A stretch of DNA of 64,000 nt from Marsupella aquatica. Lineage: Eukaryota; Plantae; Marchantiophyta. Position 1 is the first letter of the stretch. Each line of letters opens with the position of its first letter. Positions 576-59,430 of the stretch are shown here, in pieces. The stretch spans positions 17,536,357 to 17,600,356 of the forward strand of contig OZ316892.1 of the NCBI GenBank assembly GCA_973895155.1, read 5' to 3'. Position numbers and translations under genes: made by a program. The notes beneath the pieces are model-generated. The model saw nothing but the letters and a program-made list of their open reading frames with translations. It did no database searches and had not been told where the DNA came from.

Positions 576-3500
576 TCAAAGAATAATTTCCTCTAGAACG
601 CTTGCACCCAGCATCTTGTGTGGAAGTACTATGCAATTTACCACGACGACCTCGTCCTCCACTGTAACCATTTCACCTGTGGATACACATCAACTCTCAG
701 GTTAGTAACCTCTGAGATGCACATTGCACATCCAAAACATGTCAGATTGAACAAGCATTGCACATCGAGAACTGTTCAAATATTTCGGATTTGCAAAACC
801 CGCAGAGGTTTCTCACAAGTTTCTCTTTCTGAGTCAGCTGAGCTCATCAAACTGCGGAAACAAACAGTTTAGCCCATGCAGTGCGATCAGATGATGTACA
901 GTATTGGATCCTTGGTACATAATTACCTAAAATGGCAATGCCCAGTTTTTGAGTAAAATCGCCACCTCCCTGCATGCGTGAAAACGACCTCAAATGAGAA
1001 CAAGCCTGCCTTGTTTGTTTCACCGCAGTAAAGTTTACACGAAGGTCTTCGCGTCTTCGTCACACATTATGTGGAGAACGAGTAAAGAAGAATGGTTGCT
1101 GAATTTGGTAGAATCAGCTAAGAGAGTGATATATTGTTACCAGGGAAGTTGATTCAAAAGAGAGCTGAATGTTTTGGAGAAGACAAGGACGTTCAAAACA
1201 GGATGGACTCAGCCAAACTACACAACCTGAACATTTATATCCTATCATCTTTGGTCACGAGCACGATTAAATAACTATTCAAGAGCTGACAACTTGCCCA
1301 TACTCCAAAGCTATCAAGTATTGCAATTACCTTGAGATTGTAAATAAGTGAGAGATGGTAGTTATCATTAATGCTTTTTACTTGACTGCGACGAAATTAG
1401 CTTTAGGGGCTAAAGAAATCTTCACAGACTTTCAGAAGATTAATTGCGCCCACCAGAGTGCACGAAAAAAACAAGACGCTAGAGTAATAGTCATTTCTAG
1501 CAATGGGGAAAGAATGATTTGTGACGAGGACAAATGTTTGACCCGGTCTCGAGAGCTTACTTGTACGCGAGACCATCTGCCTATGATTGATTTCCACCCA
1601 ACAATAGAATGCATCACAATTGCATTATCCTGCCAGAATTCCCACAGGTCAGAAATGAGATCACAAGCCCAAATTAGATCTATCTAAATACCGAAACCGT
1701 AAACAAGCAGACAGCATTAAGATGCCAGGATTTCATATGGAATTTACCATGATTTCCACACCATCTAGAATGATACAGTTAAGGAGCCGGACTCCAGGAC
1801 CAATCCGTGCGTTAGGAGAAATGGACACATTTGGCCCAATCTGCGAGACAATTTCAACAAACATCATGAGAATCTTTGCTGGATTTTACTTCCGTCATGA
1901 CAGATCTCTGTTACCTTGGAGACAAATGAAAGCTAGTAAATGAAGATAGCCAACAAATTCTTCGACAAGAATTCTGCAATCTCTCTGGTTGCGGAGCTAA
2001 TGAAAGTAAAAACTGTAAATGCACAATATTTCCCCTCTGTTTCTGATCTGATCGCAAGTAATTCACAACGAATATCTGACCTGCCCGGTGCGATTTCTAA
2101 TATTGCATCAAATGTTGTACCGTTTTCAAAGTATCAATTCAAATCCCGACCTTGTCATCAATAGATTACAAGAAGATCATACCTTTGAAGTTGGATGAAT
2201 CTTTGCTGATGGATGAATGAAAACATCACCTACAATATTCTTTCCTTGGGCTAAGACCCCTGGATTAGTTCTTCGAAATTCCTCAAGATACAGGGAAGAG
2301 CATCTAATGGACATCCTGAAGCAATGCATCAAATTTGGTAAGTCAAAATTCAGGGCGATAAAAGCTTGATAAACAGATTTGAAAGCAACTGGCAACATGA
2401 ATTTACCACGTCAGACGGGCCAGTTGTAGTAGCGATCCCTCATAAAAGAACGCCAATGTCATTCGTGTTGCAAATAGAGACTCGAGTACCAGCAGAAGAA
2501 GATGCTAATAAATGAGAGAGGACTCACCCGGGTGCTTTGATCTGTTCCCAAAAGTCTGCGGTTTCGAACGTGTACAGCTGTTTCTTGCCAGCCAGTGGTG
2601 TCAAAATGTCTTGATCAAGTCTCACAAAGTCAGATGGAATTGATCTGCATGATTGAGATTTGTAACCATAATTACAGACAACTGTTATGAACGCAGCTGT
2701 GAAAAAAGCCCTTGACGTTACCAACAAGGATGGTATTATCAATTTTCACAGTACAACACTGCAGGACAGAACCATGGCATTTTAACGAGACAAATACTGA
2801 GAACATCTATGAGAATGGGCATTAAGTTCACGTTTAGAGGAAACGCTGACCTCTTCATGTAGTTAATCAGATCATTATGAATTGATGACGAACAAGCACA
2901 AACAAACGAGAAGATATGGACTATGCCAGAGTTGATGATGGGTATCTAAGACTCACTTTGTCGCGGACTGGAGAGCTTCGAAGCTAGATAAACGTCGCAA
3001 AGAAGCTGGTAGAGCACACCAAACCAATGTAAGCACACCAAAACCCTACACTAGTGGTAATGGGTATCTATGACTCACTTTGTTGCTGACTGTAGAGCTT
3101 CGAGGCTATTTAAACGTCGCAAGACATCTGTTACGACACAGCAGAAACAGTGGTGAGCAAAAACAAAGGTACCCGGAGCTGCTCCCTTCTGCACACAGTT
3201 GGGGGCTGCAATTACCACACAAGTATCCACAACATCAACCTCCAGTACTCTACATTCCAGCTTTTACTACAAAAATGCAGCAGATGTTTATCTTGCTGCA
3301 GGGCCCGTGAGGCTAACCTCTGTCTACCCGAGATGTTGACACGTTTGCAATGGCCTTGAATATCTCCGGTGTGAAAATATAGACTCCACAGTTTATGTGG
3401 TCACTCACCTGAACAGTAAATTCCAATCAAAGGAGAGAACCAGAAAATGCTATTGGCTGAATTACTATGATAACAGTAGTACGGAAGGAATTATCAGGGC

Positions 3501-6159
3501 AAGATGACAAATGCAGGAAAAGCAGAGAGAAATTAGTATAGAGGTCTTACAAAAGTCTCTGGTTTCTCTGCGTAATGAAGCAGCTCCTGGGTATCTGGAT
3601 CAGCCACCAGTTCTCCAAACTGACTAGCGAAGTCTGCTGAAACCTGAGAAAGAAAGGAATGTCATCAGATTTACAGGAAATAAAAGTAGAGAATGATCAA
3701 AAGGGTGAGACGTGGAAGTTCCTCCCCACCAATCCATAGACCGGTAAATACCAAGAGCAGTTACCTTTTTCACTAAAAGGGTGCCAATTCCACCAAAAGA
3801 CCGGTGTGCAGCTGCAATCAAGTAACCACATAGCGGTGTAAGATGTATTAAAGAATAGTTCAATGGCACAAGCTTAGATTAGGGCCATACAGAGGACATC
3901 GAAACTTCATGCATATTCTGGGAAGATTTTCCTTAAACCACCACTGTCCATATAAAAGGAGAAGTGTCCAATACTTTTCACTTTTTCACATTTCTCCACA
4001 ATTTCAGGAAAATGGTACTAAAAATGGTAAAACCTGCTGGATCCAGGTTTTGTCATGGACAATGGCGCTTTAAATGGTTATTAACGGAGGCGTGATAAAC
4101 AAGATACGAATTCGGACAGAACAATTAAATACCCAGCATTTCTTGGAGCGGAAAGCTGCAGCAAACATCACAGTTTAAGACAATGATATCTTCCTGGAAC
4201 AACCACGCACAACGATTAGCACATTTGCGGCCCGCAACTTTATACTAAATTTCTTGTTATAGAAGAGATCGTAGTCATTTCTTGTTGTAGATTATGACAG
4301 GTAAACACATTCAATTTGCCCAACTACGTACTGCCAAGGATGCCAAGGAAACTAGAAAACATTGTACCTCAAAAACGTGTACTCCTCATATGTCCACGTA
4401 AACCAGCAGCATCTACTATCCATCTGAACCCCTACAAAAGCATGTCTAAACATAGAGTAAACAGCATGGATAGTGATCCTTACTGGGCTATCCTCGAGGA
4501 TGAGATCTTTGAAACTGTAAAGACCACCTGCTGACCCGTGTGGTCGGTCTTCACGCAAATATCTGTAATATGCAACAAATGGTAGCATTACCATGATTGA
4601 TGTTGCAGTCAAATCCTACGCAATATCATAGTTTGCGAGAGAACATATTGCTGGCAATTCTGCAGATGAAGATAGAATGAAATTTTATGAAATCAACCTC
4701 CTTTGATTGCAATATGGGACGAGTAGCAAGCTTTAGACTGGATAGAGCACGAAACCTCCACATGCTATACGACACTTGTAAGCCAAACTATAAAAAAGAT
4801 AGATATGTTCGTCTGAAAGGTAGGGAACTTGATTGAACTCTTTTTCAGTTTGTACCTCACTGGAATCTGGAGCTCAGTGGAGATGGTGGAGCAGTAGAGG
4901 GAAAAGTCCCTTTCTTCATAAAAGCCTATCAAGTAAATGTGGGCCAGGTTCGGTATCTGTTCCCAACATTCAGAGCGAACTCGTGAAGATTCTAAGTACC
5001 TTACAGGCCGTGCTTTGTTCAATGAAAAGCATTGAATCGTACACATAAAACATGCTATTAACGAACAAAACATGACACAAATTTGTGAGGATGCACTAAT
5101 ATTAAACAACCCTAAACTGGGAAGCCACAACTTGGTAATATACTGATATCGATAACGCCAGGGGCAAACTACGACAAACACTCGCTGTTTATTGATGGTT
5201 AGACAGGTAAAGGAATTATTAAGGGTAGATCATTTGCAGGAGGGGAAATTCCGATAGATTGGGAGAGCAGTTCCCTGGATGACCACAAATGAAATCTCAA
5301 CCACGAAACTCAGGAGGCTTTAGTCCTCACCTTAGACATGTAAGAAAGGAAACGAATTAGCACAAGGTGCACATAGGAAATCAGAGTTGATTAGGAGGGA
5401 GGGACACACCTTCTTGCAGGAGAGAACGGGATGGTGGAGCATTGGCTGCCCTGCAAGTGGGAAGAGAGGTTTGGGGATGTTGAAGGAAAGAGGTCGAAAG
5501 CGAGTACCTGCAATATTAAGATGAAGTTAAAGATGAGTAAGGCCAGGGTTGATTCATATCATCACGGATCCTGTTTATCCGAGAAGGTGATTTATGTTTA
5601 TCTAAAAATTCATATCGGAAACCGGTCTTCGCTTGGGGTGTCCAGAGGTTTCACAATACGCTTTCAATTTCTGCACAAGGTCACCTTTGTGTGTTTTCTT
5701 TAACATCGGGAAAGTTCGTAAGAAGAGTACTTATGGTGTTTACACAGGGAAGTCAACGGTAGACATGCTGTTAGTATCATTCCCTATCTAGTCCCCGCAG
5801 TCCAAGGCACAAAACCTATGGCCAGAAGGCTACAACATATACTGCATAATGGTTAGCCTCTGCTTCATTATCCACTAACTCCCATCAAGGAAATTGCAGT
5901 ACAACCTCACAAATTGCACCATAAACATGGCATATCTTCTCTGCCCCACTGAGCCCCATGGGCCCACGCCTCTCATGCGCGGAATCCACAATAATTCATT
6001 TGTGCAGGTTCTTCCTTCCTCCACCAAAAATCAGAGAATCTCATGGAAGTAGAAAGAAGCTCCAGCGGAATATGAAATAGTACCTTTCGTAGGCCCTCCG
6101 ACCATAACCACTGCCACCGTCTTCCCCGTCGAGCCATTGGTAGGAACGTCGGGACCCAT
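576..6159 (-). CDS. GMPPA: Mannose-1-phosphate guanylyltransferase alpha / KONJAC-like (GMPP regulatory subunit), 15 coding exons plus one alternative exon
   Basis: Spliced by eye with GT-AG borders and consistent phases: 6084-6159, 5410-5507, 4856-4956, 4484-4562, 4133-4193, 3765-3811, 3551-3643, 3318-3408, [3079-3127 or 2957-3005], 2528-2644, 2183-2315, 1748-1840, 1561-1629, 927-969, 576-676. Protein has [53 protein letters not shown], hexapeptide repeats ([19 protein letters not shown]) and ends EEIIL*. Confidence 0.93.
2957..3005 (-). other. GMPP-alpha exon 9b (49 nt, encodes [17 protein letters not shown])
   Basis: cag acceptor and gtgagt donor; phase 1 to phase 2 fits the flanking exons; RRLSSFEAL resembles the motif in seed-plant homologues. 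Confidence 0.9.
3079..3127 (-). other. GMPP-alpha duplicated alternative exon 9a (49 nt, encodes [17 protein letters not shown])
   Basis: Paralogous copy of exon 9b offset by 122 nt; intact cag/gtgagt splice sites; same length and phase; no stop codon. Confidence 0.75.
3937..4069. mobile_element. Short TIR element (MITE-like) flanked by TTAA, in a GMPP-alpha intron
   Basis: TTAA at 3933-3936 and 4070-4073; imperfect TIRs (accaccactgtccat / atggacaatggcgct); homologous in inverted orientation to 42106-42251. Confidence 0.65.
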
Positions 6160-9323: not shown

Positions 9324-10982
9324 TTATTGTAGCCGCACAACTAATTTGTTCTTCTTGCCGGCTGACAAGAGGAGCATTTTGTCATCCACGAGGTCGACAG
9401 CATCTAATGTTTGTCCATCATCTACAACCTTCTCATTATTCAGATATAGACCTCCCTGCTTAATAAGCCGTCGAGCAGCTGCCTTACTGGCCTGCAGCTC
9501 TGTTTTCACACAAAGATCCACAACAGATACACCCAGCACTTCAGCCCTGGGAAGGGAACAAGAAGGGATATCTTCAGCAATGGATTCCAGTACTTTGGCA
9601 TCAAGCTTTGTACTAGCCCCGGGAGCCAAAGCTTGAGTAGCCCTCTCGGCATCTGCTAGGGCTTCTTCTCCATGAACAAAACGAGTCACCTCTTCTGCTA
9701 ACCTTCTCTGCGCACTGTTGGGGCTGTACCCTGGCTTCCCCATGGCCTCCTCAATAGCTTGGATCTCATCTAAATCCACAAATGTGATCATTTTCAGCAT
9801 CTTTATAACGTCAGAATCAGGGGTGCTGAACAGGTACTGGTAGAACTTATAAGGGGAGAGATAAGAGGCAGCCAGCCAGATTGCTCCTCCTTCAGACTTC
9901 CCAAACTTTGTCCCATCCGACTTGAGCAGCAGGGGCCAAGTGAGGCCATGTGCTCCATCCTCATGAAGCAATTTTCTGATCAAATCTGTACCAGCTGTGA
10001 TGTTTCCCCACTGGTCACTTCCTCCAATTTGCACTGACACCCCTTCTTCCTTGAACAAATGGACAAAGTCATACCCCTGCAGAAGCTGGTACGTGAACTC
10101 CGTGTAGCTCATACCTTCCTCGGAATTCAACCTCCTCTTCACGCTCTCTTTGGCCATCATGGTTCCCACTCTGGCATACTTCGCCACATCCCGGAGAAAA
10201 TCCAGTAAGCTGAAATCCTTCCACCAATCGTAGTTGTTTACAAAAATGGGATCGTGACCTCCTCCTAGAGAATCTTCTTTCTTCAGAATTTGGACCAAGA
10301 CTGCTCGAATGCCCTCCAGATTCTTCGAGATTGTGTCCTCACTCATGACAGGTCTCTCAATTGATTTCCCTGATGGGTCCCCCACCCTGGCTGTAGCTCC
10401 ACCCATGAGTGCAACGGGGATATGGCCACACCTTTGGAACCATGAGAGGACAATTATTCCCAGCAAATTCCCAAGATGGAGGCATTCTGCAGTAGGATCA
10501 AATCCACAATACACTTTCACCGGCGCAACACCGGGCTTGGAGCATGCCACCCTCAGCTCATCTCCGGTGATGGATTCAAGGAGTCCCCTCTCCTCCAGCA
10601 CGTCAATGACGTTCCTCCCCTCTCGAGGATTGGCGATTGCTCCTCCTCTCTCTTCGACGGCAATGCTGGCCCTGGCAAATAAGAGCCCCTCAGAAGCGCT
10701 AGTAACGGACCTACAATGACGATTTCCACCACCGTTGCGAAGAGGCGCACCTCTGAAACAAAACTGGCGCCCGGAAGGGCTGCAGTTGTATGTTTGCGCC
10801 TTGCCATTCCCCCCAAACCCGCCAACGTGAGCAGGAGATTTGAAGACTGCTGCGACATGGCTGCCAGAGCTCCACTTCTGTGCAGGGAGATTCATGAAGA
10901 AACTCACAACGCGGCTGACTGAGGTCACCACGCACGCCGACGACGTGTGTGTTGGCAGAATCCCGAGGCGCTGGCAGGCCAT
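9324..10982 (-). CDS. Tyrosine--tRNA ligase, bacterial-type, organellar (chloroplast/mitochondrion), intronless
   Basis: VYCGFDPTAECLHLGNL (HIGH-like), QIGGSDQWGNI, KFGKS (KMSKS-like), C-terminal S4-like domain (ARRLIKQGGLYLN); Ser/Arg-rich transit peptide; first ATG at 10982 (the track ORF begins at a non-ATG codon, 11009). Confidence 0.96.
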   Translation of the reverse strand: MACQRLGILPTHTSSACVVTSVSRVVSFFMNLPAQKWSSGSHVAAVFKSPAHVGGFGGNGKAQTYNCSPSGRQFCFRGAPLRNGGGNRHCRSVTSASEGLLFARASIAVEERGGAIANPREGRNVIDVLEERGLLESITGDELRVACSKPGVAPVKVYCGFDPTAECLHLGNLLGIIVLSWFQRCGHIPVALMGGATARVGDPSGKSIERPVMSEDTISKNLEGIRAVLVQILKKEDSLGGGHDPIFVNNYDWWKDFSLLDFLRDVAKYARVGTMMAKESVKRRLNSEEGMSYTEFTYQLLQGYDFVHLFKEEGVSVQIGGSDQWGNITAGTDLIRKLLHEDGAHGLTWPLLLKSDGTKFGKSEGGAIWLAASYLSPYKFYQYLFSTPDSDVIKMLKMITFVDLDEIQAIEEAMGKPGYSPNSAQRRLAEEVTRFVHGEEALADAERATQALAPGASTKLDAKVLESIAEDIPSCSLPRAEVLGVSVVDLCVKTELQASKAAARRLIKQGGLYLNNEKVVDDGQTLDAVDLVDDKMLLLSAGKKNKLVVRLQ

Positions 10983-11326
10983 GGCTCTCCTCCTCCTCAA
11001 CGAAAGCACTCCTTTCCCGTGTCACTGGGCAATTTAAGAGTCCATGGCGCCCCTAGAAACCTTCGAAATGGAAGAAACCACAGGCATGGTCTATCAGGGA
11101 TCAACTTGGCACGTTGATCGGAGCTCCATGACCTAGGGTGCAATGCGCTCTCAACCAAGAGAACTATTTTCGGGGACTTTAGAAGCTTGACAATTTGCAT
11201 CTCGAAACCTTGAGAGCTAAACATCATGAATTCCTCGAGAAACTCGGCAGCGGGAGAAGCTTGAAGAGTTCGTCTAAAGAAATTGAAAGTTTATATGTAA
11301 AATGTGTCTCGAGATGGACACTTGAA

Positions 11327-12264: not shown

Positions 12265-12519
12265 AAACTGGTGCTGGGTTACTTTTTCCCATACCTCATT
12301 TACATGACATAAAGATGGTCTGGACGGGGTTCAAAATACAAGTTACCATTCTGTACCCATTTCTGGAATACCTTGTTATTTCCATAATCTATTGCCCTGA
12401 AACTAGTTCTGGGTTACTTTTTCCCATACCACATTTAAATGATATAAAGATGGTCTGGATTGGGGTCACTTTTTCCCATACTGCATTTACATGATATAAA
12501 AGATGGTCTGGATTGGGGT
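12265..12519. repeat. Three imperfect direct repeats (about 55-68 bp)
   Basis: Core actttttcccatac..catttacatgatataaagatggtctgga..gggt at about 12265, 12398 and 12467. Confidence 0.8.
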
Positions 12520-13604
12520 TCTAGTTTGAACCCTACTCATAGAATGCTCAGAAAAGTTTCTGGGTTATCTTCATATTTTGGTCACAGGGTTAGGGTAACC
12601 TCCTGCCCAATCTCTCAGCATCCTAAACTTGAAATCGGTCAGCTTTTCTTGCTTTTCTAGCTTTTCTGGTCAGAAGGTTACAGCTTAGTAAGCTAGTAAC
12701 CCCCTGTCCAGTCGACATTAGGTGTGGAGTCGCCCATTAGGAACACGGTCACCAAATGGATTACGTATCACTCAGAAGCGCAACATTTACAAAGATCACA
12801 CCTAGCATTTGTTAAACAGCTGCAGCTGCATATATTATAGTGTATATATAATATATATGGGACCTTCGGATTTTGTGAATAGACCTACCTACAGATGAAC
12901 TCAGCTCCGTCCTTATAATCAAGCCTAATTCAGAATCCTGGAGACCGGAATAGTTCCTCTTTGGATTCTCCAATGAGTCTATCCCCGTCAAGGATAATTA
13001 CCTCGTCTTAGACGAACCCAAATTCATTTCTTGTACTTTAGCATGGGCTCCGGCAGAGCTATAGACCTTGCCTTTTACTCACTACAAGGTTCTTCTGGGC
13101 CGCTATCCACAGCAAATACTCGGATGAGTTGCTCGTGGCTATCACATTTGCTTCATTCACTGATCTTTACAAACACGTGATAAATTGTATGTAACTTCTT
13201 ACAGTCGAGAAGTCCACAAAGAGTTTCTTAAACATTTCCAAAGTAGCAGTCGAGCAGTCCCCAAGGATCCAGATTTGGACATACAACAGAGGTACCTCAT
13301 GAACTGGTGACGTGGCTTCACGTCGAGAGAAAACAACCCTTGTCCAACCACTTGCATCATTAGATTGCCAACAAATGCTAGATCAAGAGAAAGACTTTCA
13401 TATATTCAGATATGAGTGGTATGCTGAAATGATCGATAGCTGTCAGTATTTTGGGAACTCCTACCGAAGATTACAGTAAGATAATAAACTTTTAATTTTC
13501 CAGACCTTCAGCATTGGGTGACCAAGCTAATCTAAGGTGACCAAGCTAATCTAAGGGAAAAATATCCCTCCATCCAACCATCTTACCAAGATCCATTTTT
13601 GACC

Positions 13605-16600
13605 TCATCTATTCTTTCCGCTCCTCCAGCTTCTGCGTTGGTCATAGCTTTCATCAGACCTTTGACCATACCTCTGGGAGCGCCTACCAGAGTCCGCAGA
13701 CAGATCTCTTTTACGTGGCGGTCCTTTCTCAGGATATTTTTGATAATCCCTGCCCTCCCTGGGTTTGCTTCCGAATTGACTTTCCTCCTTGGGTTTGCTT
13801 CTGCAGTGACTTTCCTCCGTTCTGTGAACATATCTCTCCTCCCTTCTGCGATCATGTCTTCCCTCGTTTCTGTTATCATATCTGTCCTCTCTTCTGTGAT
13901 CACGTCTTTCCTCCGTTCTGCAATCATATACTGGTGAAGATCGTCGTAGAAAACTACTAGGACGCGGTTCTTCGGGTTCCCTGTCTCTACTTCGTTCTCG
14001 TGTTCTGCTCACGGGATATTTATCCATGGACACAGGTCTAGGATGGCTGTTCCAATCTATGCATCTCTTCCTGTTACCCTCAGCATATCTGCTTTCTTCG
14101 TCCCTGGTACCTCCTCGATGGAAATCCCGCAACGACTCATTTCTAGGAAGAACCTCTTGTTGCTCAGACGAACCTGAGGCCCTGCTTCCGTAATCTCTGG
14201 TGGAGCTCCTCTTACCATGACGTTTAGGGTTGTGAAAGTCATTATGAGGCCGATCTGCTTCTCTAGAAATACCGCCATAATTACTGGATCTCCTCGAAAG
14301 CAGTGGAAGTCTTCTCGTGTCCCTCGACGTGGGCCGAGAGGACCAAGAAGGTCCGGTTCCTCTCTCATCAAAGGCGCGCGGGTATCCTTGCGAATCGTCA
14401 TGTAATTGAGGAATACGATCATTATAGTCAGAAAATTTGGACCGTTTGTCTCGGTGTCCAGCACCCACGAGTTGTGGTCCCGCGCCTCCGTTACCTGGAA
14501 GTGAATTGTCTCGCCTCATCAAGTCAGTGAAATTGGGTATAACGGGTGCACATATTGCCATCAAATGAGCAGGAATAGCCTGTTCCTCTTCATTCTTGAA
14601 CTGTTCTGACTTCAAAATCTGCGACCATTGGGGATCAGTCGGACTGATACTAGATTCACCGAAAGGATCTGGCCTTGTCCAGTCAGTGAAATTGGGACTA
14701 ACGGGTGCACATATTGCCATCAAATGTGCGGGAATAGCCTGTTCCTCTTCATTCTTGAACTGTTCTGACTTCAAAATCTGCGACCATTGGGGATCAGTCG
14801 GACTGATGCTGGATTCACCGAAAGGATTTCTCTGAATGTAGTCTTGCACATCCCTTGCCCCAAGCAATCCTTCTAAATAAGGCAGGAGTCCCCCAGCTGT
14901 CGGCGAACACGCACCAGCAAAATGTAAATTTCAAGTCACCACCTTCTCTTCTCGGTTAAGACACATGCTAAATTCACTTATAACATGGCTTCACCTCGAT
15001 GAAAAGAAAGCAAAAGATATTTGAAGCGGGGAAGATAATATCCGATACTACTATCTATAACATTCTAGTGCAGGTTGTATAGAGTACACAGCTATCGACT
15101 TAGGGCATAGAAGGAAGACACCAATTTCGAGGCCGTGGTAAACGACAACAGAGGACACAATTTTCAAGATCAAACAAACTGTACACACCTAGAAAGTTGT
15201 CGTCTGGGTCAGTTGCCTTGTATGTCTTCGGGAAAATTGCTGTGTGTCGCTGCACCAAAAGAGTAAAAATAACTAACCAGCAAACATGTTCACAACCCCC
15301 AGCAAGCTTTCCCCAGCGATTATCCCCCAGGACGTCCGCCTCAAACAGAATCCTGCGCCCTGAGAGAGGAAACTAACACCTACTCCATTGTTGGTTGACC
15401 AATGATGCAGTACCTTGGCGAGACGAAGACTAAACTGTATAAATTTGATCAAAGTGAGAAGCCAATATTATGGACATCCAAGATCATTTCAAATAGGCAT
15501 ATCCGCTATCGTGATTACATACAGGATTGCTGATAGCTTTATACGGCGAATCATCAATAAGCAACGTGTTTGAAGGACCATAATCCCCTTTTGCCCATGG
15601 AAGATCAGCTTCAAATTTCTCCCACAACTTCGACAGCTCCTTCAAGAATACAGGTTTGTACTTGTTATCAGGATGTCTAACACCTGTGTCCGTGCAATGC
15701 TGCTGATGCTGCCACCACCAGAAAAATGGAGGTATGAATCAGTATCCTAATGGAACTCGCAAGAAAAAATGAGCTACCATAAATTCAGACGTCGCCGGAA
15801 TCATCATCTGCTACTGCATGTCGATCTAACTCTGTATGCTTTTGGAAGAATTGCTCGAGTGTACTCAAGAATCTACTTCTAGTTTTACTTACCCAAATGA
15901 ACGCAAGCTTTTCTTTGGCTTCTTTGAACATAAAGTCAACAAGAGAAATAACATTGTGCCTGCAAGCAAGACAATCCAATCGGATGAGACTGTGCAGGAG
16001 AAGACCTCAATAGAGACTGTCTCATTTACCCGACTGCTTAAATCCTTGGCAAAAAAATTGAAGAAATATCAGAGACCAAAATTAAGCTTTGTGCTTCCAA
16101 ATCAAATGTAGTTTGTAGCCAAGAAGGGGCGAAGGTACAATCTGAAGACGGTATACTCACTCGCGAGCTGAGGACCAGACACCAACAATGAAATTCTGGA
16201 GAGAAAACTGAATGAACTCCTCGCAGAAAGCCCTTTTGTACACTGAATAGATAGAAAGCGGGCAGGAGAACTTTTCAGAACAAACAAGCCAACGGTGTTC
16301 CTCTTTTCGTCTCGCCCCACTGAGTATTCTCTACCTATGGAAACCTAATGTAAAACAACCCTATATATTCAATTCATTTTACATTCCTTGTTTTTAATTT
16401 TTTAATTTGGAGCGGAGAGGGATTCCATTGAACATTAGCACGAACGAGAGGAAATTTTGAATCACTACCTTCGGAAACAGCTTTAAAGCAATAAACTTGA
16501 AATGTGTTTATTTCGCTGTTAGTATCAAGCCTTTTATTTTCCGCACTTTGAAAGCAATAGCGAAGTGTTGCTCGGCACAAGTAGGTGGGTGTGACCATCA

Positions 16601-19084: not shown

Positions 19085-19830
19085 GGACCCTGTAGAAGTG
19101 CACCGTGGATAAGTGCATTCCATGTTCCCTAATATCACAAGTATTCTCTTTGTAAATGCACCCAAAAAATGCACTTTGTAGAAGGGTGAAGTGCAGTGTG
19201 GATAAGTGCATTCCATGCATTAGTGCAGGCCAACCATGTTCCCTAGTATCACAAGAATTCTCTTTGTATTGCACCAAAAAAATGCACTTTGTAGAAGTGC
19301 AGAGCAGCGTGGATAAGGGCATATCCATGCATTAGTGCAGGCCAACTATGTTCCCTCGTATTACAATTATTTTCTTTGTAATTGCACCAAAAAATGCACT
19401 TTGTAGATGTGCAGGTCAACCCTCACTAAATGACAAAGTATTGATGCTAAGGAGTGCAGTCACTAGATTGATGTAGACTAACAATGTCATCCCCTAATAT
19501 TACAAGTATTTTCTTTGTAAATGCACCAAAAAATGAAGTGCAGCGCAGCCTGGATAAGGGCACTCCATGCATTAGTGCAGGCCAACTATGTTCCCTAATA
19601 TTAGAATTATTTTCTTTGTAATTGCACCAAAAATGCACTTTGTAGAAGTGCAGGTCAACCCTCACTAAAAGACAAAGTATTGATGCTAAGGAGTGCATTC
19701 ACTAGATTGATGTAGACTAACAATGTCATCCCCTAATATTACAAGTATTTTCTTTGTAAATGGACCAAAAAATGAAGGTTCCAGAAGTACAGGTCAACCC
19801 TCACTAAATGACAAAATATTGGTACTAAAA
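19085..19830. repeat. Complex tandem repeat array (about 120-bp subunits, 239-bp higher-order duplication)
   Basis: Recurrent tgcaccaaaaaatgcactttgtagaagtgcag and ggataag..cattccatgcattagtgcaggccaac; 19398-19537 recurs at 19637-19777. Confidence 0.85.
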
Positions 19831-25340: not shown

Positions 25341-28300
25341 ATGTCAACGCAAGGCTCGGCTGCCGTGGCACGCCGCTTGCGCCGTCCACTGCTGGTAATT
25401 TCATGGAGTTTTCTTTGAACTATGTGCTTCTCTGTCTCGATGATGTGATAATTGAGTCTGATTACTGAAAGGGAATTTTGGCTTGCTGGTTGATTCAAGT
25501 CGTCTCGAAGCGGGCTGTGGGTTGTTCGTCAGGGCATAACTATGTTTTAGGGAGCATATTCTCACCTTAGAGAATTGGCGAGTTTCTAGGTCATGGGCGT
25601 TGGCAAAGGCAGAATTATGGTCTATGTGGAATTTGGATGTAGTTCGCTCCATTTGCAACAGATCTGAAAACTGTTTCACCAGAATCGAGTTTCCAGAAAA
25701 TATATAGCCGATAGACATTTCGGTTTCTACATTGTTTTCAAGCGGCTTAGTTTCACCACTAAGTATGCAGATGTTGCCATTTTGGGGATTTCTGTCTACT
25801 TGTTCGTAGTTGAGCCATTGAAATTGCTGGGAAGGATTGGAAGGTGTAAATCGACACAGTCCTGCCGTTCTCTTAGGGTTGCTTCGAAGGAATCTGATGT
25901 TCTGGAGGGTCTTTGACTTAGGGTTTGCCTCAAATTGCAATCAACGGATGACAACCGAAGTACAGCTGAGGCTTTTAGGATATCACAGCCAATCTTTCTT
26001 TAGATATCTTATGTCGATATGATTTGCAAGAGATCGCCCTGTCGTGTCCAGCACGTCATAATATGCTACATCTTCCCGACGTCTAATGGAGTTCTATTCA
26101 GCTTTATAACTGTGTTCTCTAGGAAAGATTCACGTGTACCGTGCTGGCTCTCTTTGTCTACGAATGGTGCTTTCTGACGTGTTAATAGTCGGTCTATATT
26201 CAGGAGGCTTTTGGGTATTACAGCAGATCGTCACGTACCCCACCACACCTGAATATTGATGCTGTAAGTCACGGATGCGGGTTTTCAACTGCCGTCAATC
26301 AGGGGCATAACTTTTCCAAGAGGTGGTTCCAAAGTGTAGGTTTACCTGGAGGCAAAGATCATGGCCCTGGCACATCGAGTACTCTATCACGGATTTCAGG
26401 CTTGTCAAGACTGCGTGGTCATAATTGTGAGCTCACAAGAGCATCTAATTGGAGAAGCTCTGCTGCCCCAAGGCATTTGACACGCGCCCCTGGCTTACGG
26501 AGAACATTCTGCAGCGAGGCCCCCAAAAAGAGAGGTGTGAAAGGGTTATTTCGAAGTTTTTGGATAACTTGTACATTTCTCCTGCCAATTATCAGACGGG
26601 ATTACCCTAAAGTTGGGTTAAGACTTGGAATTTTGAATCAACGCGTCTGTTTCAGGTTATGAGAACTACTATCCCAAGAATAAGAAGGAGATACCGAAGC
26701 GTAACCATAAAGAAGCAAAGAATGGTATGCCTTCCCTTTCCAGTTTCTGTCGATCTTGGGGTAATTTGGTGGCACTTAGTGAAATTATTCGTGTTCTACT
26801 CTATTGTACGTAGTTTGATGCACTTATTTCAGAACAAAGAAATATCATCCTGTACAGATTGAGCATATGTTTGGTAAGATGACACGTCCCTCGAGTTGAA
26901 GGCCTATTTATGTTAATGACAAATAATTTAAGTAGTACTTTTTGAGCTACAAACCTTTTCAGGCACTTCCTGAAAGGTTGATGTATACATATATCTAAGT
27001 CTATTGCGAACTCAACTGCTGCTGGTGTGATTCCACAATGCAGAGGATCCGAAGTCAGAAGACCCGAAGATGCTCACAGATGTCCCAAAAGTCCAGATGC
27101 AATCTCTGATTCTAACAGGGTTTCTGGGTACTATCGCGCTTGCAACACTTTCCCTCAGACGGAGTGATGCCCAACAGGTACCTCCTTGTAATCTCGAATG
27201 TATTCGACTGTGCCCGGTATTAGTGTTCTCTTCAGAACTGGAAAGTGTTCTCCGCATACCAACGACTCAACTGAGCTCTCTGTAAATGTTGTAATACTCT
27301 ATACAGATCAGCTTTCAGGAGTTCAAGAATAAGTTGCTGGAGCCAGGTCTTGTTGACCACATTGAGGTGACAAACAAAAGCGTAGCAAAAGTTTACACTC
27401 ACTCCCCGTCATCCCAGGAGGGTAATGGAGGAACTGTTGAAGATTCCCAAACAGATGGTCGCCAGTCAACAAATGGAAACCGAAATGTCCGTTACAAGTA
27501 CTTTTTCAATATTGGAAGCATTGACTCGTTCGAGCGCAAGCTGGAAGATGCTCAAGACACCCTGGGGGTAGATCCCCGTGACTACATTCCTGTGACGTAT
27601 GTGTCAGAGATGAGCTGGCAGCAGGAATTACTAAGATTGGCCCCAACCCTACTTATAATTGCTGGATATATATTCTTTACTCGAAGAATGCAAGGCGGGT
27701 TCGGAGTAGGAGGTGGTGGCTCTGGTATGGGTGGGCGTGGAATTTTTAACGTTGGCAAAGCGCAAGTGACCAAATTGAATCAAAAGGCGAAAGATAAGGT
27801 GCATTCCTCAACCGTGCCTCTACCATTCATGTTTTTGTTACAGGTTGTTAGAGTCTTCTCGTCATTCTGTGTTGTAGTAGGTGGTGGAAATGTGCTGAGA
27901 ATAGTTCGCATCAGGCTAATTCCGTCACTGAATTTGGTGTGAATTGATGGCTGCCTGAGAGGCGTGGAGAGCTTCAGAATGCCCACGTGTACGTCAAAGG
28001 CGCCTGTTGTGTGAGACTATCCTACCACCTACAGTGTATTGAACCTTCCCTGTCGCTACCGAATGCAGGTTATGTTCAAGGACGTAGCAGGTTGCGACGA
28101 AGCTAAACAAGAAGTTATGGAGTTTGTCCATTTCCTGAAAAACCCCGCAAAGTACCAGGAAATCGGAGCAAAAATACCCAAAGGTGCCCTTCTAGTTGGT
28201 CCGCCAGGCACAGGAAAGACTTTGTTGGCTAAGGCAACAGCAGGAGAAGCTGGAGTTCCATTCCTTTCCATCAGCGGATCAGATTTTATGGAGATGTTTG

Positions 28301-30185
28301 TCGGTGTTGGCCCGTCTCGAGTGAGAGATCTCTTTGCACAAGCTCGGCAGGCGAGTCCAAGTATAATTTTTATTGATGAAATTGATGCTATTGGTCGGGC
28401 AAGAGGCCGCGGTGGTTTTGCTGGAACAAATGACGAGAGGGAAAGCACTTTGAATCAGCTGTTGGTGGAAATGGATGGGTTTGGTACAACCGCTGGCGTG
28501 GTCGTACTAGCAGGAACAAATAGGCCGGACATTCTTGATAAGGCTTTATTAAGGCCAGGACGTTTTGATCGGCAAATTACTATTGACAGACCAGATATAA
28601 ATGGGAGAGAGCAGATCTTCCGTATCTATCTTCAGAAGTTAAAGGTTGATCAAGAGGTTACCTATTATTCCCAGCGGGTTGCTGCACTTACTCCAGGATT
28701 TGCAGGTGCAGATATTGCCAATGTATGCAACGAGGCAGCTTTGATAGCGGCCAGGAATGAGAGGACTGTGATTACTATGGAGCATTTTGAGGCTGCTATT
28801 GACCGGATCATAGGTGGTTTGGAAAAGAAAAAAAGGGTAAGGCACTCGTGTTCTTTCCCGTGATTTTCAAATGGAATTGTTGCAGTTAGATGTTACAAAG
28901 CACACGTTGGTCCGACACAGCTTAGGATACAAGGTTATCAGTAAATTGGCTGTTTATTCAAGTGGTAGCCGGAGTGACGAGCTAGATTTGAAGACAAGCT
29001 CTTAGAACTTAATGCTAAATTGGATGTTTGCAAGTCGTGGTGCAATAAATGTTTCCAGTTCTTTGTAGATCTTTGCGTAGCTAAGAGATTTGTTTGTGAT
29101 CAGGTGATTAGCAAAGAAGAGAGGAGGACAGTTGCATACCATGAGGCTGGGCATGCAGTGGCTGGTTGGTTCTTGCAGTACGCGGAGCCTTTGCTTAAAG
29201 TGTCAATTGTTCCGAGAGGTACAGCTGCCCTAGGCTTTGCGCAGTACCTGCCCAACGAGAATCTTCTCATGACCAAAGAACAACTTCTGGACATGACTTG
29301 CATGACCCTTGGTGGACGTGCTTCAGAACAGGTACATACTAATTTTTCCTTTTGTAATAATGTGAGATACAGCTGAAAGGCAGCTGACAACCAATTACTA
29401 TTATCTCATGTTGTTTGTCTATCGAAATTTTGTCTGGATGTGGAATGTAAGGTTTATGTTGGTCGTGTATTTTAGCATCCATTTCGTTGCTATTGAAGGA
29501 GTTCTGGCCTACTTGATTTTCTGGATAAATTCATTTCTTGTAGAAATTCCTCTTTAGTGCTGTTGTGCTATGTGTTCGTTCACAAGAGATATCCAGCTCC
29601 TTAGATCTTTGGAGCTCATTGCATTTCTTATTCTTTCTTTGACAGATCTTGTTGGGGAAGATTTCAACTGGGGCCCAAAATGATCTCGAGAAAGTGACCA
29701 AAATGACCTATGCTCAAGTAGCAGTATATGGATTTAGCGAAAAGGTTGGGTTGCTATCCTTTCCACAAAAGGATGATGGGATGGAAATGACAAAGCCTTA
29801 CAGCAATCAAACCGCAGAGATCATTGATCAAGAGGTTCGCCTCTGGGTTGACACTGCTTACAAGCGTACTGTTGCATTATTAACAGAGCATAAGAAAGGT
29901 GTGGAGGCTTTGGCCTTGAAGTTGCTAGAGAAAGAAGTGCTCCATCAGGAGGACCTTGTTTTGATCCTTGGTGAGAGGCCTTTTAAAAATGCAGAATTGA
30001 GCAATTATGATCAATTTAAGCTGGGCTTTCAAAAAGGGAGGGACACAGGTGGTGGTGCCGGTGATGGGGCCAGTGCTGACAATGGGGCAGATGACGGTTC
30101 AGAAGGCTCAAATGGTGAAAAGAAAACAAACGGGTCACCTCCTCAGCCAGATGGTGCCCTTCTCCCAGTACCGGCTGTGGTTTAG
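25341..30185 (+). CDS. ftsH: Mitochondrial m-AAA metalloprotease FtsH (FtsH3/FtsH10, AFG3L2-like), 8 exons
   Basis: Exons 25341-25394, 26204-26534, 26656-26724, 27044-27177, 27307-27798, 28069-28836, 29104-29331, 29646-30185 join in frame. Arg-rich presequence [18 protein letters not shown], Walker A GPPGTGKT, Walker [35 protein letters not shown] zinc motif. The first exon is the least certain. Confidence 0.95.
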
Positions 30186-31150: not shown

Positions 31151-31972
31151 GGACCGGAATAGAGTCCCAAGAGTTTTGGCGTACCATCTGCAACCACTCG
31201 GCATCCTTTTTGACTCTGGGCGCATCGATTTCGCGACACCACACATGCTGGGGCAGGCCTGCCGAATGGCAAACTTTCTGGTCACACGAACGATTCCTCG
31301 TAGCTGCGTCGTCCCATAAGCCTTCCCTCATCACCTCGTCCCTTTCATCATGGACCACTTCACTTCAGGCTTTATAACCCACTGCGGGACCCTCGAAGCT
31401 CTGATTAGAAACTAACACATACTCTTGCGACGTCACCTCCGAACGAAAGAAACATATTGTTAGTTGCCAGCAGAAACATGTGACCTCCTCAGTTCCCGAA
31501 ATCTAATATAGGCGGGCAAGCGGAGATTTTACGATTTCATCGAAAAGGCCACCCACTACATTCGATTTGACCGTCTAGAAGCGGAAAAGCTGGGTCTGCG
31601 CTTATCGCCCACGACAGCCGATCCTCGCATCGTTACGCTACGCGGAGGACTGTTTCTCATACAAATAGAGCCAGAGAAGTCCACAACAAAAACATTCATG
31701 TTCTCTCACTTCACGCACTGCAGTGCGTTTGTATATTCAAAGGAATGTGTATTTGAGATGAGGGACTTGTGCACACATTCTCTCCAGATAGTCGTGTACG
31801 TGATAGGAGACTGACTCGTGGGAAAGGTTGCTCAATTTTGGTGCTGTGGCCAATTCATCTAAATTTCATTTTGAGCTGAAATTGTACTAGAGCACAGCTC
31901 CAGATTCTAGCCGTGGTGGTTAAGGTGGTGGTGTTATAATTACCCGGGTAATTACCTTGGTGGTCCGGAGCC

Positions 31973-32836
31973 ATGGGTAATACATTGGGCTGTGTGCAGG
32001 TGGACCAATCTACGCTTGGCGTCAAAGAAAAGTTTGGGAAGTTTCAAGACATTATTGAGCCGGGGTGTCACTGTGTGCCCTGGTGTTGCGGATTAAACGT
32101 TGCTGGCAAACTCTCCCTTCGTGTACAGCAGCTGGATGTTCGTTGTGAGACCAAAACGAAGGACAATGTCTTCGTTGTGGTGGTGGCTTCAGTTCAATAC
32201 CGAGCGCTCAAGGACTCTGCTTACGACGCCTTCTACAAACTCACGAATCCTAAAGCTCAAATCCAGTCATATGTCTTTGATGTGGTGAGGGCCAGCGTGC
32301 CCAAGATGCTTCTGGATGATGTGTTCGAGCAGAAGAGCGAGGTTGCCAAGAATGTTGAGACGGAGCTGGAGAAGGCCATGGGAACCTACGGCTATGAAAT
32401 CGTCCAGACGTTGATTGTCGATATCGAGCCTGATGCGTCAGTCAAGAAGGCCATGAATGAGATCAATGCAGCTCAACGAATGAGGGTCGCAGCTCGGGAC
32501 AAAGCAGAGGCGGAGAAGATCCTCCAGGTGAAGAGGGCTGAAGGAGAAGCGGAGGCGAAGTATTTGTCAGGCGTGGGTATTGCAAGGCAGCGTCAAGCGA
32601 TTGTTGATGGCTTGAGAGAGAGCGTTGTTGCATTTTCTCATCAGGTCCCTGAGACAAGCGCCAAGGACGTTCTTGACATGGTCTTGGTAACCCAATACTT
32701 CGACACCATGAAGGAGATTGGAGCTAGCTCGAAGAACTCCACTGTGTTTATCCCCCATGGACCAGGAGCAGTCAAGGATGTGGCAGAACAGATTCGCAAC
32801 GGTTTGTTGCAGGGCCAAGCAGGACAGCAGCAATGA
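31973..32836 (+). CDS. HIR: Hypersensitive-induced response protein (HIR, SPFH/band-7 family), intronless CDS
   Basis: [13 protein letters not shown] (N-myristoyl/S-acyl motif), [53 protein letters not shown]; 287 aa is typical of HIR proteins. Confidence 0.96.
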
Positions 32837-53393: not shown

Positions 53394-55082
53394 CTATGTA
53401 CAAGATGGTGGGCACGAGGACAGACTTCTAATTGAGGCAGATGATGACCGGCTTCTACTACTCGAGGTCTTAAGGTCCAATTTTGCGTTCAGGCGATAGA
53501 CAATAGGACCTATTCGCTCGTTTTCCTCGGGAGGGTGCCGATACACGACGTCTACATCGAAGCACTTGGCAGCCATCCTGAAGAAATGGGAATCCTTCTT
53601 CCACCTCCTCACGTGCCCCAACAGTATGACAGACTCTTTGCCTCCTCTTCTCTCGCTTCGTTCCTTGATTTCGGAACTCAGCTCAGGCTTGTCGCTCACG
53701 AACTGCCGTCCTGTTTCGATTCGGGATACTTGCTCAGGAGCCTTGACCTGGATATCATTTGCGTGCATGACGGGCACTAATCTCTTGCCTAGAGGTGACA
53801 AACATACAGCCGACCCAATTAGCTCTGAAAGTAAGAGCTCGGTTCCTTGGAGTGGAGAGAGTAGAGCACTCACTCTTTTCGGGATCGTAGGCATCTGTGT
53901 CTCCATGGCATGATTGGTACGATTTGTCCCTGTGGCAACGAGCCAAATCAGTGTCTGAAGGAATGGTTTGTAAGACGTGTCATGGTAAACACAGTCGGAA
54001 GCAAGGATGAGGTCGAAGGACAGCTCTCCGAAGGCCTTCACGTCTTCTTCGACGCCCCAACGGAGCACTCTCGCCTCCACGCTTCCTCCAGCAGCCGCTA
54101 CGACGCTCCTGTTGAGATTAAGGTTGTAGGAGATATTCGGGATGACATGTGGCAAATCAGTCAGCACTACGTCAGCTCCTAAGCACGCCGCTACGATGCC
54201 GACCATTCCGGTCCCTGAGCCAAGTTCAAGCACCCTCATTCTTCTCATGGGTAAGAGGACATTACTAGAATCTGTGCTAAGAGAAAGTGGTAATTCTGGC
54301 TTGTCCACGACGTGCACTCCATTTCTGTCACTATGATTCTTTTCATGCTTGTGATTGGCGTCAAAATTGGCAAAGCATGGATCTATGGGGTTCTCAATGT
54401 CTGCACTAGCAAATGGTCTTTCAATGTCTTGCGAGATCTGTGCTTCAGGGTCGCCAATCGAGTCAGTTCTTCCGTTACGCTCAAAATTGTTACAGAGGGT
54501 CACGCTGTTGTCTACAATGGGGGATATCTCGCCCTCGCAAATAGAATGAGCAAAAACTGGATCCATTTGGTGACCAATGTCTCTACCAACAAGTCTATCA
54601 ATGTCTTGAAAGATCTGTGCTTCTGGTTTGCCATTGGAGTCGGTTCTTGGCGTTCCGTCACGCTCTAAAATGTCTCCTCCTACACTGCCGTCCTTAACAG
54701 AGCAGATTCTGTCATCAAGGATACGATTGTTGTCAAGGCCCTTAAAGAAACTGTCACCGAGAATTGGATTCCTTTCTAGGCCGGTAAACGAGCTGTACCA
54801 ATCAGCCAAGTCCCGTAGAAGGTGAGGAGGTCGGACATCGATAACAGACATTCCCTGTTCTCCGTATTCTTTTTCAATGTACAAGCACGTCGCATTGGCT
54901 GCAGGCCAGAGTTGAAAGGAGAGCCCTTCGGATCGTAGCTGCCGCACGGTCACATTTGCCCCGGTGCCTCTGACCTGGTAGTGGCAAAATGTCTCTGCAA
55001 TGCACGGCTCATCTGCATCACCTTCATCGCCTTCTTCGTCAGATTGTTGCTCACAAGAACTGACTTCGATGTGGCCCCTCAT
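53394..55082 (-). CDS. METTL21/Methyltransf_16-family protein-lysine methyltransferase with large insertions, intronless
   Basis: GLSFQLWPAA, RVLELGSGTGMVGIVAA, VVLTDLPHVIPNI, LRWG, FDLILASDCVY, LGHVRRWKKDSHFF. Confidence 0.92.
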   Translation of the reverse strand: MRGHIEVSSCEQQSDEEGDEGDADEPCIAETFCHYQVRGTGANVTVRQLRSEGLSFQLWPAANATCLYIEKEYGEQGMSVIDVRPPHLLRDLADWYSSFTGLERNPILGDSFFKGLDNNRILDDRICSVKDGSVGGDILERDGTPRTDSNGKPEAQIFQDIDRLVGRDIGHQMDPVFAHSICEGEISPIVDNSVTLCNNFERNGRTDSIGDPEAQISQDIERPFASADIENPIDPCFANFDANHKHEKNHSDRNGVHVVDKPELPLSLSTDSSNVLLPMRRMRVLELGSGTGMVGIVAACLGADVVLTDLPHVIPNISYNLNLNRSVVAAAGGSVEARVLRWGVEEDVKAFGELSFDLILASDCVYHDTSYKPFLQTLIWLVATGTNRTNHAMETQMPTIPKRVSALLSPLQGTELLLSELIGSAVCLSPLGKRLVPVMHANDIQVKAPEQVSRIETGRQFVSDKPELSSEIKERSERRGGKESVILLGHVRRWKKDSHFFRMAAKCFDVDVVYRHPPEENERIGPIVYRLNAKLDLKTSSSRSRSSSASIRSLSSCPPSCT

Positions 55083-58270: not shown

Positions 58271-59430
58271 TCAAAAGTCGCCAGCCCATCCCTTGTTCTC
58301 TTCTCCTCTGACCCTAGGACCAATTATTTCTACTCGCATGTCCCTCCTTCGCCTATGCAGGAAATTGGTGAGCAATGCAGCTGCCCTAAATGTGATGGCA
58401 AACTTAGGTCTCACAAGATCAAATCTTTTCTGCAACCGCCTCCATTTCTGTTTCATACCACCAATTCCCCACTCCACCTTGACTCTGTATCTTGTTGAAG
58501 ATCTTCACCAGGCTTTCGTCCAATTCCATAGCTCGGATTTCCACCTTACTGAAACCTCTCATGACATAATTCTCCATGCTGGTGTATCCCTGATCGCCAA
58601 GCAAATACTCATAGTAGTCATCCTGATTTGCAAACAGGGTTCTGCAATTCTTGTCCACCCAAGAATCCTTCAGAATTGTGACATCATGGAAACTACCAGG
58701 ATAGCCAGGGTCAACATAGATAAAAAGTCCATTATGATCTACTAGCACTGTGGAATTAAAGCAATACATCTTTTTCCGCCCCTGATACCATTTACTGTGA
58801 TAGGGGTCGTCAAAGGGCCTGCGAATTTTGCATAAGGTGCCATCAACAAATCCTATGCATCCAGGCAAGTTGGTGATGACATTCCCCAACTCCAATCTCT
58901 CATCGGCAGTAGGCCATCGGATCTCATTGGCCAAGGCTTGATTTACACAAGAAGCTACAAAAATGGCATCAGCACATACTGATGATCTTGCCCAATTCCA
59001 ATGAGCAGCATCAAAATAAATTGTGTTGTCATGCTTCATGTAAAAGACGTAGCTAAGCAATCTCTGTTCTGGAGTCAATTTGCTAGGGCGACCTTTCAGC
59101 TTATGAGATAATCCAATAGACCTAGCATTCTGTTCTATGGTGGGACAAACGATTGCACAAAGCTCTACAAATTCTTCGAGAGTGAAATTTGTGAGGTCCT
59201 TGAACAATTGTGGAGTTTGAGAGTATTTAGAGAGCAGGTCATCTACTGGCCTTCTTGGGTTCACAGTCACCTAATTCTCCCGAGCAAGCTCAATTGGCTG
59301 GAATGTTTCGAGCATTATGAGATAAGCTTGCATAGCCATTGCAAGCAACAACAGCATCAAGGTATCTCCATCATCTTGGCCATCATTCTCTCCTCTCCAG
59401 AAATCTTCATTCTCGTTGCCGTGCGCAACT
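58271..59430 (-). pseudogene. Harbinger/ISL2EU-type DDE transposase (HTH + DDE_Tnp_4-like), disrupted
   Basis: CIGFVDGTLCKIRRP, YPGSFHDVTIL, YLLGDQGY, RVKVEWGIGGMKQKWRRL; frameshift at about 58487 and in-frame TAG at 59271-59273. Confidence 0.88.

Follow-up and report, generated by a model that had tools for sequence, protein, structure and literature searches.

The liverwort Marsupella aquatica carries a KONJAC-like gene in a 64,000-nucleotide (nt) stretch of contig OZ316892.1 (positions 17,536,357 to 17,600,356; hereafter the window, in whose own coordinates all positions are given). Within this gene, two versions of a 49-nt exon stand side by side on the minus strand, designated A (3127-3079) and B (3005-2957). 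This arrangement raises the question of whether A and B are used in a mutually exclusive manner and, if so, what the choice between them changes in the protein. Whether alternative splicing yields distinct working proteins in plants is debated, and homologous mutually exclusive exons (MXEs) are rare there. The pair bears on how a plant enforces exon exclusivity and on how KONJAC phosphorylation controls the supply of GDP-mannose for ascorbate, mannans and glycosylation. The explanation that we favor, on balance and with reservations, is that A and B are spliced mutually exclusively to give two proteins of 416 amino acids (aa) that differ in the phosphorylatable residues of a regulatory segment, and that the pair arose once, before the split between complex-thalloid and leafy liverworts.

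The window gene (minus strand, coding span 576-6159) is a multi-exon GMPP-alpha/KONJAC-like gene that encodes 416 aa with either A or B. Its best named homologues are from the liverworts Calypogeia fissa, Marchantia and Riccia. The A-form gene model is identical at 391 of 416 positions (94%) to P0124, a metatranscriptome-type liverwort protein that clusters with the C. fissa entries. Pfam NTP_transferase and GMPPB_C domains were matched on P0124, which aligned with KJC2 at E = 1.8e-191, with human GMPPA at 7e-102 and with VTC1 at 8e-58; the exon downstream of the pair also gave matches to Arabidopsis 8YRE chain A and human GMPPA. The window model contains a two-residue insertion in its pyrophosphorylase motif (GGPTKGTRFRP), where VTC1 has a two-residue gap, and this insertion is a feature that separates KONJAC proteins from VTC1/GMPPB (PMC11066809). 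An AlphaFold model of P0124, with a mean predicted local distance difference test score (pLDDT) of 94.9, showed a nucleotidyl-transferase and left-handed beta-helix fold; an earlier model from a plant-only alignment (pLDDT 65.5) was discarded. In Foldseek, the top match of the retained model was chain A (KJC2) of 8YRE, 'VTC1-KJC2' (E = 4e-50, root-mean-square deviation 1.2 A), followed by human GMPPA, so that the fold is nearer to KJC/GMPPA than to VTC1/GMPPB. The motif insertion, the ranking of E-values and the structural match together bear out the GMPP-alpha/KONJAC identity that a sequence-only reading of the window had proposed. In Arabidopsis, KONJAC proteins have no activity of their own and bind and activate VTC1 (PMC11066809).

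The same reading had described two 49-nt minus-strand exons 73 nt apart, each with a cag acceptor and a gtgagt donor, and their positions, splice sites and encoded peptides were all confirmed. A and B are identical at 39 of 49 bases. A encodes residues 216-232 in a derived form with Asn222 (codon 3110-3108), and B encodes the ancestral RRxSSF form. They are flanked by constitutive exons, one upstream (3408-3318, minus strand) that ends in phase 1 and one downstream (2644-2528, minus strand) that starts in phase 2. Either exon alone leaves the 416-aa frame open in the gene model, whereas inclusion of both creates a premature stop at codon 238, omission of both at codon 222 and retention of the spacer at codon 232. 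A and B are thus adjacent internal exons of similar length and equal phase, homologous and equipped with valid splice sites, all structural features of homologous MXE clusters.

The ten differences between A and B are unevenly placed. Seven fall in four changed codons among the first nine, and three are synonymous and lie in the last eight (EALQSATK). The earlier claim that residues had been kept by synonymous changes holds for EALQSATK; it does not extend further, since only three of the ten differences are synonymous and the RRL codons are identical in the two exons. No direct repeat between 500 and 6300 is longer or better than this one, which spans 89 nt at 80% identity with intron flanks included. 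The donor-side element of A (3060-3078, minus strand; GTGAGTCATAGATACCCAT) is identical at 18 of 19 positions to that of B (2938-2956, minus strand), and a donor-side 22-mer has exactly two occurrences in the window, against none expected from 100 shuffles. The acceptor region of A (3128-3177, minus strand) contains a candidate branch point, CTCAC, at a distance of 26 nt from the exon.

To determine whether the exons are used singly, we examined spliced joints in a relative. Five sequencing runs were listed, none of them recorded as RNA, and four were compared with the window as contigs. One of these, X1, from another organism, was judged RNA-like, with 10 spliced joints listed and 6 of 30 bins without depth. 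As a single RNA-like run available as contigs, X1 can show that a form is present, not that it is absent, and its depth cannot rank forms. Exon A was joined to the downstream exon in three contigs (2644-3079) and to the upstream exon by joints 3129-3321 and 3129-3356, as well as by loose ends that read as an upstream exon. Exon B was joined to the downstream exon in one contig (2644-2957, with a 25-nt side). A more distant gene copy in X1 aligned on B with both neighbors, through joint 2642-2957 (45-nt side) and a loose end at 3001. Among the X1 joints listed in 2500-3430, none joined A to B (3005-3079) and none skipped both exons (2644-3318). Of the four junctions named by the sequence-only reading, X1 provided the 3318>3127 type, 3079>2644 and, in one contig, 2957>2644, but not 3318>3005 of the close orthologue. 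The reading would have been undermined if A were never used or if only both-exon transcripts occurred; X1 instead has A joints and, among those listed, no A-to-B joint. Both exons are very probably used singly.

X1 also contained two contigs, 2615-3108 and 2978-3108, that cross the spacer unspliced; by contrast, five bins within the intron above A, in 3140-3299, were empty. The 73-nt spacer intron and the 312-nt intron below B (2645-2956, minus strand) were retained together in contig 2615-3108. It is possible that this retention represents a detained or unproductive third state of the gene.

In Marchantia polymorpha, both forms are annotated at one locus, Mp6g00070 (MARPO_0163s0013). The A form, P0121 (BBN13010-12, BFI16760.1), reads AALRRLNSF, and the B form, P0001 (BFI16759.1, BFI37081.1), reads ATFRRISSF; the two proteins differ at 4 of 412 residues, all within the segment encoded by the exon pair. 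The pair is accordingly common to two distant liverwort lineages, in one of them at a single annotated locus of a model species. Only the Asn form appears in the Riccia fluitans and M. paleacea entries and in earlier ones for M. polymorpha, as A alone is found in most liverwort annotations, and A is for this reason likely to be the commoner form. The Marchantia A exon also has a one-residue acceptor variant (412 versus 411 aa; P0121, P0122), likely a NAGNAG site, with Riccia and M. paleacea annotated with the shorter form.

We next considered how the two forms are distributed among plants. From 347 plant proteins, 334 had the anchor and 310 were parsed, 37 being dropped (13 without anchor and 24 unparsed). 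The residue before the core serine was Ser in 293, Thr in 9, Asn in 7 and Gly in 1. Six of the seven Asn-form proteins are from named liverworts, and the seventh clusters with Calypogeia. Mosses (Physcomitrium, Ceratodon, Sphagnum), lycophytes, ferns and seed plants were of the Ser or Thr type. At the DNA level, a single copy of the exon was found in all 59 scored metagenome loci from non-liverwort plants, many of them near-duplicates; a further 21 of the 80 loci were unscored (13 without a hit, 5 cDNA-like and 3 without anchor). The same 49-nt AG..GT exon was present in 27 distinct single-copy orthologue flanks. A search for additional proteins from liverworts or hornworts that span the exon gave none beyond the set already compared, which includes no hornwort or named charophyte sequences. 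Since the Ser/Thr type and the single copy prevail across the other plants scored, B is, by sequence comparison, the ancestral form and A the derived one. Other plants lose parts of the motif through gene duplication: one angiosperm gene type (loci L019, L021-L023) reads RRLSNF, with Asn at the core position, and Arabidopsis KJC2 is without the motif.

The block that holds the pair is itself conserved. The spacer intron (3006-3078, minus strand) is the shortest of the gene, at 73 nt against 118-591 nt for the others, and was seen retained, not spliced. X1 contig 2615-3108 differs from the window at 31 positions, 30 of them listed between 2655 and 2929. The spacer intron of this orthologue has at most 1 difference in 73 positions, compared with 30 in 305 in the intron below B (Fisher p = 0.016). 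In a paralogue from DNA run X5, 2936-3101 is kept with 20 differences and 2 gaps while the flanking introns are unalignable; this alignment reaches down to 2936, beyond the donor-side element of B, and in the acceptor region of A a paralogue aligns up to 3158. The downstream exon of this paralogue has 21 differences in 125 positions, and the block is no more diverged than that (p = 0.31). At least one further GMPP-alpha paralogue with the exon pair is present in these liverworts (runs X1, X4 and X5; protein P0125); these paralogues are known from contigs aligned to the window, and a paralogue spacer has two 1-nt deletions (3020 and 3059). The exon pair is thus conserved at the DNA level in two organisms and a paralogue, and at the protein level in Marchantia. 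The duplicated exon, which the sequence-only reading had suggested looking for in relatives, was therefore found intact in an orthologue and a paralogue, and its description as homologous, frame-enforced alternative exons under selection agrees with the annotated Marchantia forms, the X1 joints and the conserved block. Three points go beyond that reading: the pair is common to both liverwort classes, A is derived, and the 73-nt intron itself is conserved.

The conserved, retained spacer could also point to a different role, in which A is the working exon while B and the short intron stall splicing or feed nonsense-mediated decay (NMD), thereby setting the level of KONJAC. Such dosage control would account for the X1 contigs that retain the 73-nt and 312-nt introns beside an empty upstream intron, for the stop that spacer retention places right after A, for a spacer as conserved as coding sequence, and for the predominance of A in liverwort annotations together with weak B joints. 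However, it leaves unexplained why the ancestral B peptide is intact in both classes of liverworts, why Marchantia is annotated with a full-length B isoform and why X1 has joints from B to the downstream exon. We consider dosage control unlikely to be what the pair is for.

The age of the pair bears on a second alternative. The pair is probably old within liverworts, and one origin before the split between Marchantiopsida and Jungermanniopsida is, from sequence comparison, probably also the simplest reading. This split took place approximately 400 million years ago. Alternatively, the exon could have been duplicated independently in Marchantiales and in leafy liverworts, the shared Asn being convergent and the window pair young. 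Counted over 89 nt with the intron flanks, identity between A and B is 80%, only three of their differences are synonymous, and the window B is just 2 residues from the Marchantia A, all of which would suit a young pair; four-point distance sums on 17 residues (6 for A with A, against 8 and 8) lean the other way by a narrow count. However, independent origin would require that the same exon was duplicated twice and that an Asn seen in none of the 303 other parsed proteins was gained twice; the flanks are constrained, and the pair predates a paralogue split that left 21 of 125 differences in the next exon. Independent duplication thus appears rather improbable. The closeness of A and B requires conversion, constraint (which is evident for the flanks) or a younger origin.

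The sequence-only reading had also held that exactly one exon must be used. Inclusion of both or neither does lead to an early stop, but a TAG lies 22 nt into B, and splicing from A to this internal acceptor would add just the final 27 nt of B (2983-2957, minus strand) and keep the frame, yielding nine extra residues and a 425-aa protein; the intervening intron is then 95 nt. If this third isoform were real, the exons would not be strictly exclusive. Both C. fissa gene models (CAM6082001.1 and CAM6103008.1) are annotated in this way. In contrast, no 3079-2983 joint was among the X1 joints listed, the nine-residue insertion is absent from P0124 and from all four Marchantiales entries with A, and a gene predictor would yield such a model unaided. 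In view of the X1 joints, the C. fissa models are likely a prediction artefact, and a genuine third isoform is a poor prospect. That one copy is a neutral, decaying duplicate without a role is close to refuted: short tandem duplications are common in the window (43 rows) and the use of B is weakly shown, but both copies are intact in the orthologue and the paralogue, the spacer is constrained and both forms are annotated in Marchantia.

We then asked what mutually exclusive splicing of A and B would change. In the P0124 model, the segment (residues 216-232) covers the final part of a long helix together with a loop, and 221-230 is the lowest-confidence block after the N-terminus (pLDDT 71). 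By alignment, the segment lies within an alpha-subunit insertion that is absent from VTC1. A loop of KJC1 is 7 residues longer, and its human counterpart acts in allostery (PMC9168903); this longer loop would correspond to the segment encoded by the exon pair. Leu-5, Arg-4, Arg-3, Ser0 and Leu+4 are identical in A and B. In both lineages the exons differ at -1 (Asn in A, Ser in B) and at -6 (Val or Ala in A, Ser or Thr in B), so that, in the window as in Marchantia, the first nine residues contain 1 Ser/Thr in A and 3 in B. The surroundings of the core serine fit what we take to be a SnRK1/CDPK-type LxRxxS segment (hydrophobic at -5, Arg at -3, hydrophobic at +4). Switching of the LxRxxS motif itself was considered and rejected, as its core positions are the same in A and B. 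The proposal that splicing alters this kinase motif must accordingly be dropped; the motif around the second serine is common to both exons, and the changes are at -1 and -6.

The core serine, Ser223, corresponds to Arabidopsis Ser218, and the -1 position to Arabidopsis Ser217. Both are phosphorylated in Arabidopsis, Ser217 with a probability of 0.76 (PMC4969306) and Ser218 with a probability of 0.99999, its phosphorylation falling after auxin (PMC10783624 supplement). PMC4022089 Table 2 records phosphorylation of the first serine in rice as well as Arabidopsis, and of the second in Selaginella. The KONJAC orthogroup is among the Marchantia auxin-differential phospho-orthogroups, the site not being shown. 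The residues that the switch would change thus adjoin a phosphoserine that lycophytes share with rice and Arabidopsis; the function of this phosphoserine is not described in the literature examined. Going by the residues involved, there is perhaps an even chance that the purpose of the pair is to vary the phosphorylatable residues in a regulatory segment of KONJAC.

How exclusivity might be enforced was examined in the sequences around the pair. The only branch-point consensus match in the spacer is CTTAC (3033-3029), with its A 49 nt from the donor of exon A. In silico, the donor-side elements pair with the branch regions that precede A and B at -14.1 to -16.6 kcal/mol; in this respect A takes first place and B second among the 14 internal exons, and both exceed all 27 single-copy orthologues (best -10.9). 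We hypothesize that competing donor/branch-point pairing sets the choice of exon, and it is likely that a steric limit, together with the frame shift and NMD, keeps A and B exclusive. Two other mechanisms were considered and rejected. The donors and acceptors around A and B are all GT-AG, with GTGAGT or GTTAGC donors, which on comparison with the U12 splice-site consensus rules against U12 incompatibility. A duplex of A with B was the sole flag in a coarse scan of 36 region pairs (z = -4.0), but this follows from the quasi-palindromic nature of the exon. In a fold of 3180-2900, this quasi-palindrome pairs 3085-3106 with 2975-2998 at a probability of ~0.95 and closes the spacer into a hairpin. 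The whole-region RNA fold was no more stable than shuffles (z = -0.42).

The following sequence of events is consistent with these results. Duplication of the exon, its frame logic and the conservation of the block provide the starting point. Single-exon use would follow, as seen for A, and weakly for B, in one relative's contigs and for both in the Marchantia annotation. Joining of A to B may be disfavored by a branch point of the 73-nt intron that lies 49 nt from the donor of A; products with both exons or neither would carry a premature stop and be removed by NMD, and the choice itself may depend on competing donor/branch-point duplexes. Both proteins would retain the core LxRRxxS serine (Ser223), but the Ser at -1 and the Ser/Thr at -6 are missing from A, so that B alone could take extra phosphates. 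The switch might then tune how this non-catalytic subunit regulates the catalytic VTC1/GMPPB subunit. A more elaborate version of the scheme is tentative at best: that a switch between a derived, phospho-site-poor segment and an ancestral multi-site one has been kept since the liverwort classes split, with retained introns as a third state and with symmetric RNA pairings, in which each donor element competes for two branch-point regions, determining the choice.

Several observations weigh against mutually exclusive use of A and B as a phosphorylation switch of single origin. The B joint of the close orthologue in X1 has just its 25-nt side, and no 3318-to-3005 joint of that orthologue is among the X1 joints listed. 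In the distant X1 copy on B, typing as Asn or Ser was not possible, and the residue at -6 is Ile, not Ser or Thr, which weakens the -6 rule. The Marchantia pair is known at the level of annotated proteins. Neutral change over such a time should have separated A and B in DNA by more than their three synonymous differences and near-identical donor flanks. The spacer branch point is a consensus match only, and the <50-nt limit comes from human data (PMC5740500). The pairing is marginal: with donor and branch hexamers fixed, its value is reached by 26 of 500 shuffles for A and by 221 of 500 in the case of B. Part of PMC10783624, one small file of PMC13317982 and the main text of 10.1101/2022.12.28.521631 yielded no phosphopeptide from a liverwort. 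Finally, by alignment KJC1 has RRxSSF and KJC2 does not, and KJC2 still activates VTC1 (PMC11066809); the segment is therefore dispensable for activation, and flowering plants vary it by gene duplication.

The remaining parts of the gene and the window are summarized briefly. All coding exons of the gene model are on the minus strand, the first eight at 6159-6084, 5507-5410, 4956-4856, 4562-4484, 4193-4133, 3811-3765, 3643-3551 and 3408-3318, and those after A or B at 2644-2528, 2315-2183, 1840-1748, 1629-1561, 969-927 and 676-576. One X1 joint, 2649-2930, has non-canonical ends and unknown letters between and is likely a diverged intron of a paralogue. Another, in three contigs across 3645-4133 and also with unknown letters between, bypasses the 47-nt exon 3811-3765, which is probably a short diverged exon left unaligned; skipping is also possible. 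Three DNA runs reach ~100-fold depth over intronic 3930-4075, where loose ends are numerous; this stretch is a dispersed repeat or a small mobile element within an intron of the gene. The Pfam-matched neighbors are ordinary: a tyrosyl-tRNA synthetase (9324-11021, minus strand), FtsH protease pieces (27295-30185, plus strand), a band-7/SPFH protein (31952-32836, plus strand), a methyltransferase (53394-55097, minus strand) and a DDE transposase (58419-59270, minus strand). A 52-nt unit in three copies (12270-12520) lies upstream of the tyrosyl-tRNA synthetase gene, a 441-aa open frame without a Pfam match (13605-14930, minus strand) has a 159-nt near-perfect tandem duplication inside (14522-14827), and 112/239-nt tandem repeats occupy 19120-19777.

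No description of the exon pair was found among the titles and abstract openings searched, although subscription papers and supplements may list it, and no paper naming Mp6g00070 was found. The accessible portions of PMC13642808, PMC13544439, PMC10095807, PMC6581706, PMC3228551, PMC10942332, the PMC13317982 supplement and the main text of 10.1101/2022.12.28.521631 contained nothing relevant; among the rows listed in the Riccia supplement (PMC13642808), the gene appears in the expression sheet only. The statement of the sequence-only reading that MXEs are rare in plants agrees with 169 of 19,045 splicing events in Riccia (PMC13642808) and 11 of 2,442 peptide-supported events in Arabidopsis (PMC10942332). 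The liverwort KONJAC pair is a probable new case of a class, homologous MXEs, that is known elsewhere and rare in plants. Were the more elaborate scheme above to hold, a land plant would have a homologous MXE of deep conservation that is directly editable in Marchantia and offers a handle on the role of KONJAC phosphorylation.

Comparison with known systems shows both likenesses and differences. Arabidopsis KONJAC1 and KONJAC2 (At1g74910, At2g04650) and human GMPPA share the fold and family, and KJC1 shares the RRxSSF phospho-segment. In Arabidopsis the segment is varied between two genes, KJC1 with and KJC2 without the motif, whereas liverworts would vary it within one gene by exon choice. 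Marchantia Mp6g00070, known from database entries, has the same peptide types (RRLNSF and RRISSF) in otherwise identical proteins. Exons 2 and 3 of alpha-tropomyosin are an example of steric exclusion, and Drosophila Dscam and 14-3-3 are examples of docking/selector pairing. The window pair resembles the former in its very short spacer and in a putative branch point ~49 nt from the donor, and the latter in duplicated intronic elements able to pair with shared partners; unlike in docking/selector systems, the putative pairing partners here are the branch regions themselves. Steric and docking/selector mechanisms are both described for MXEs in PMC5740500 and PMC3228551. Among human MXE clusters, 60% of 629 have lengths not divisible by three and the donor-to-branch distance is <50 nt in 9% (PMC5740500). 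A and B are like the homologous MXE clusters of animals (PMC5740500, PMC3228551) in equal length, a length not divisible by three, phase, homology and internal tandem order, and unlike them in their plant host, in the cryptic in-frame acceptor inside the second exon and in the visible retained-intron state.

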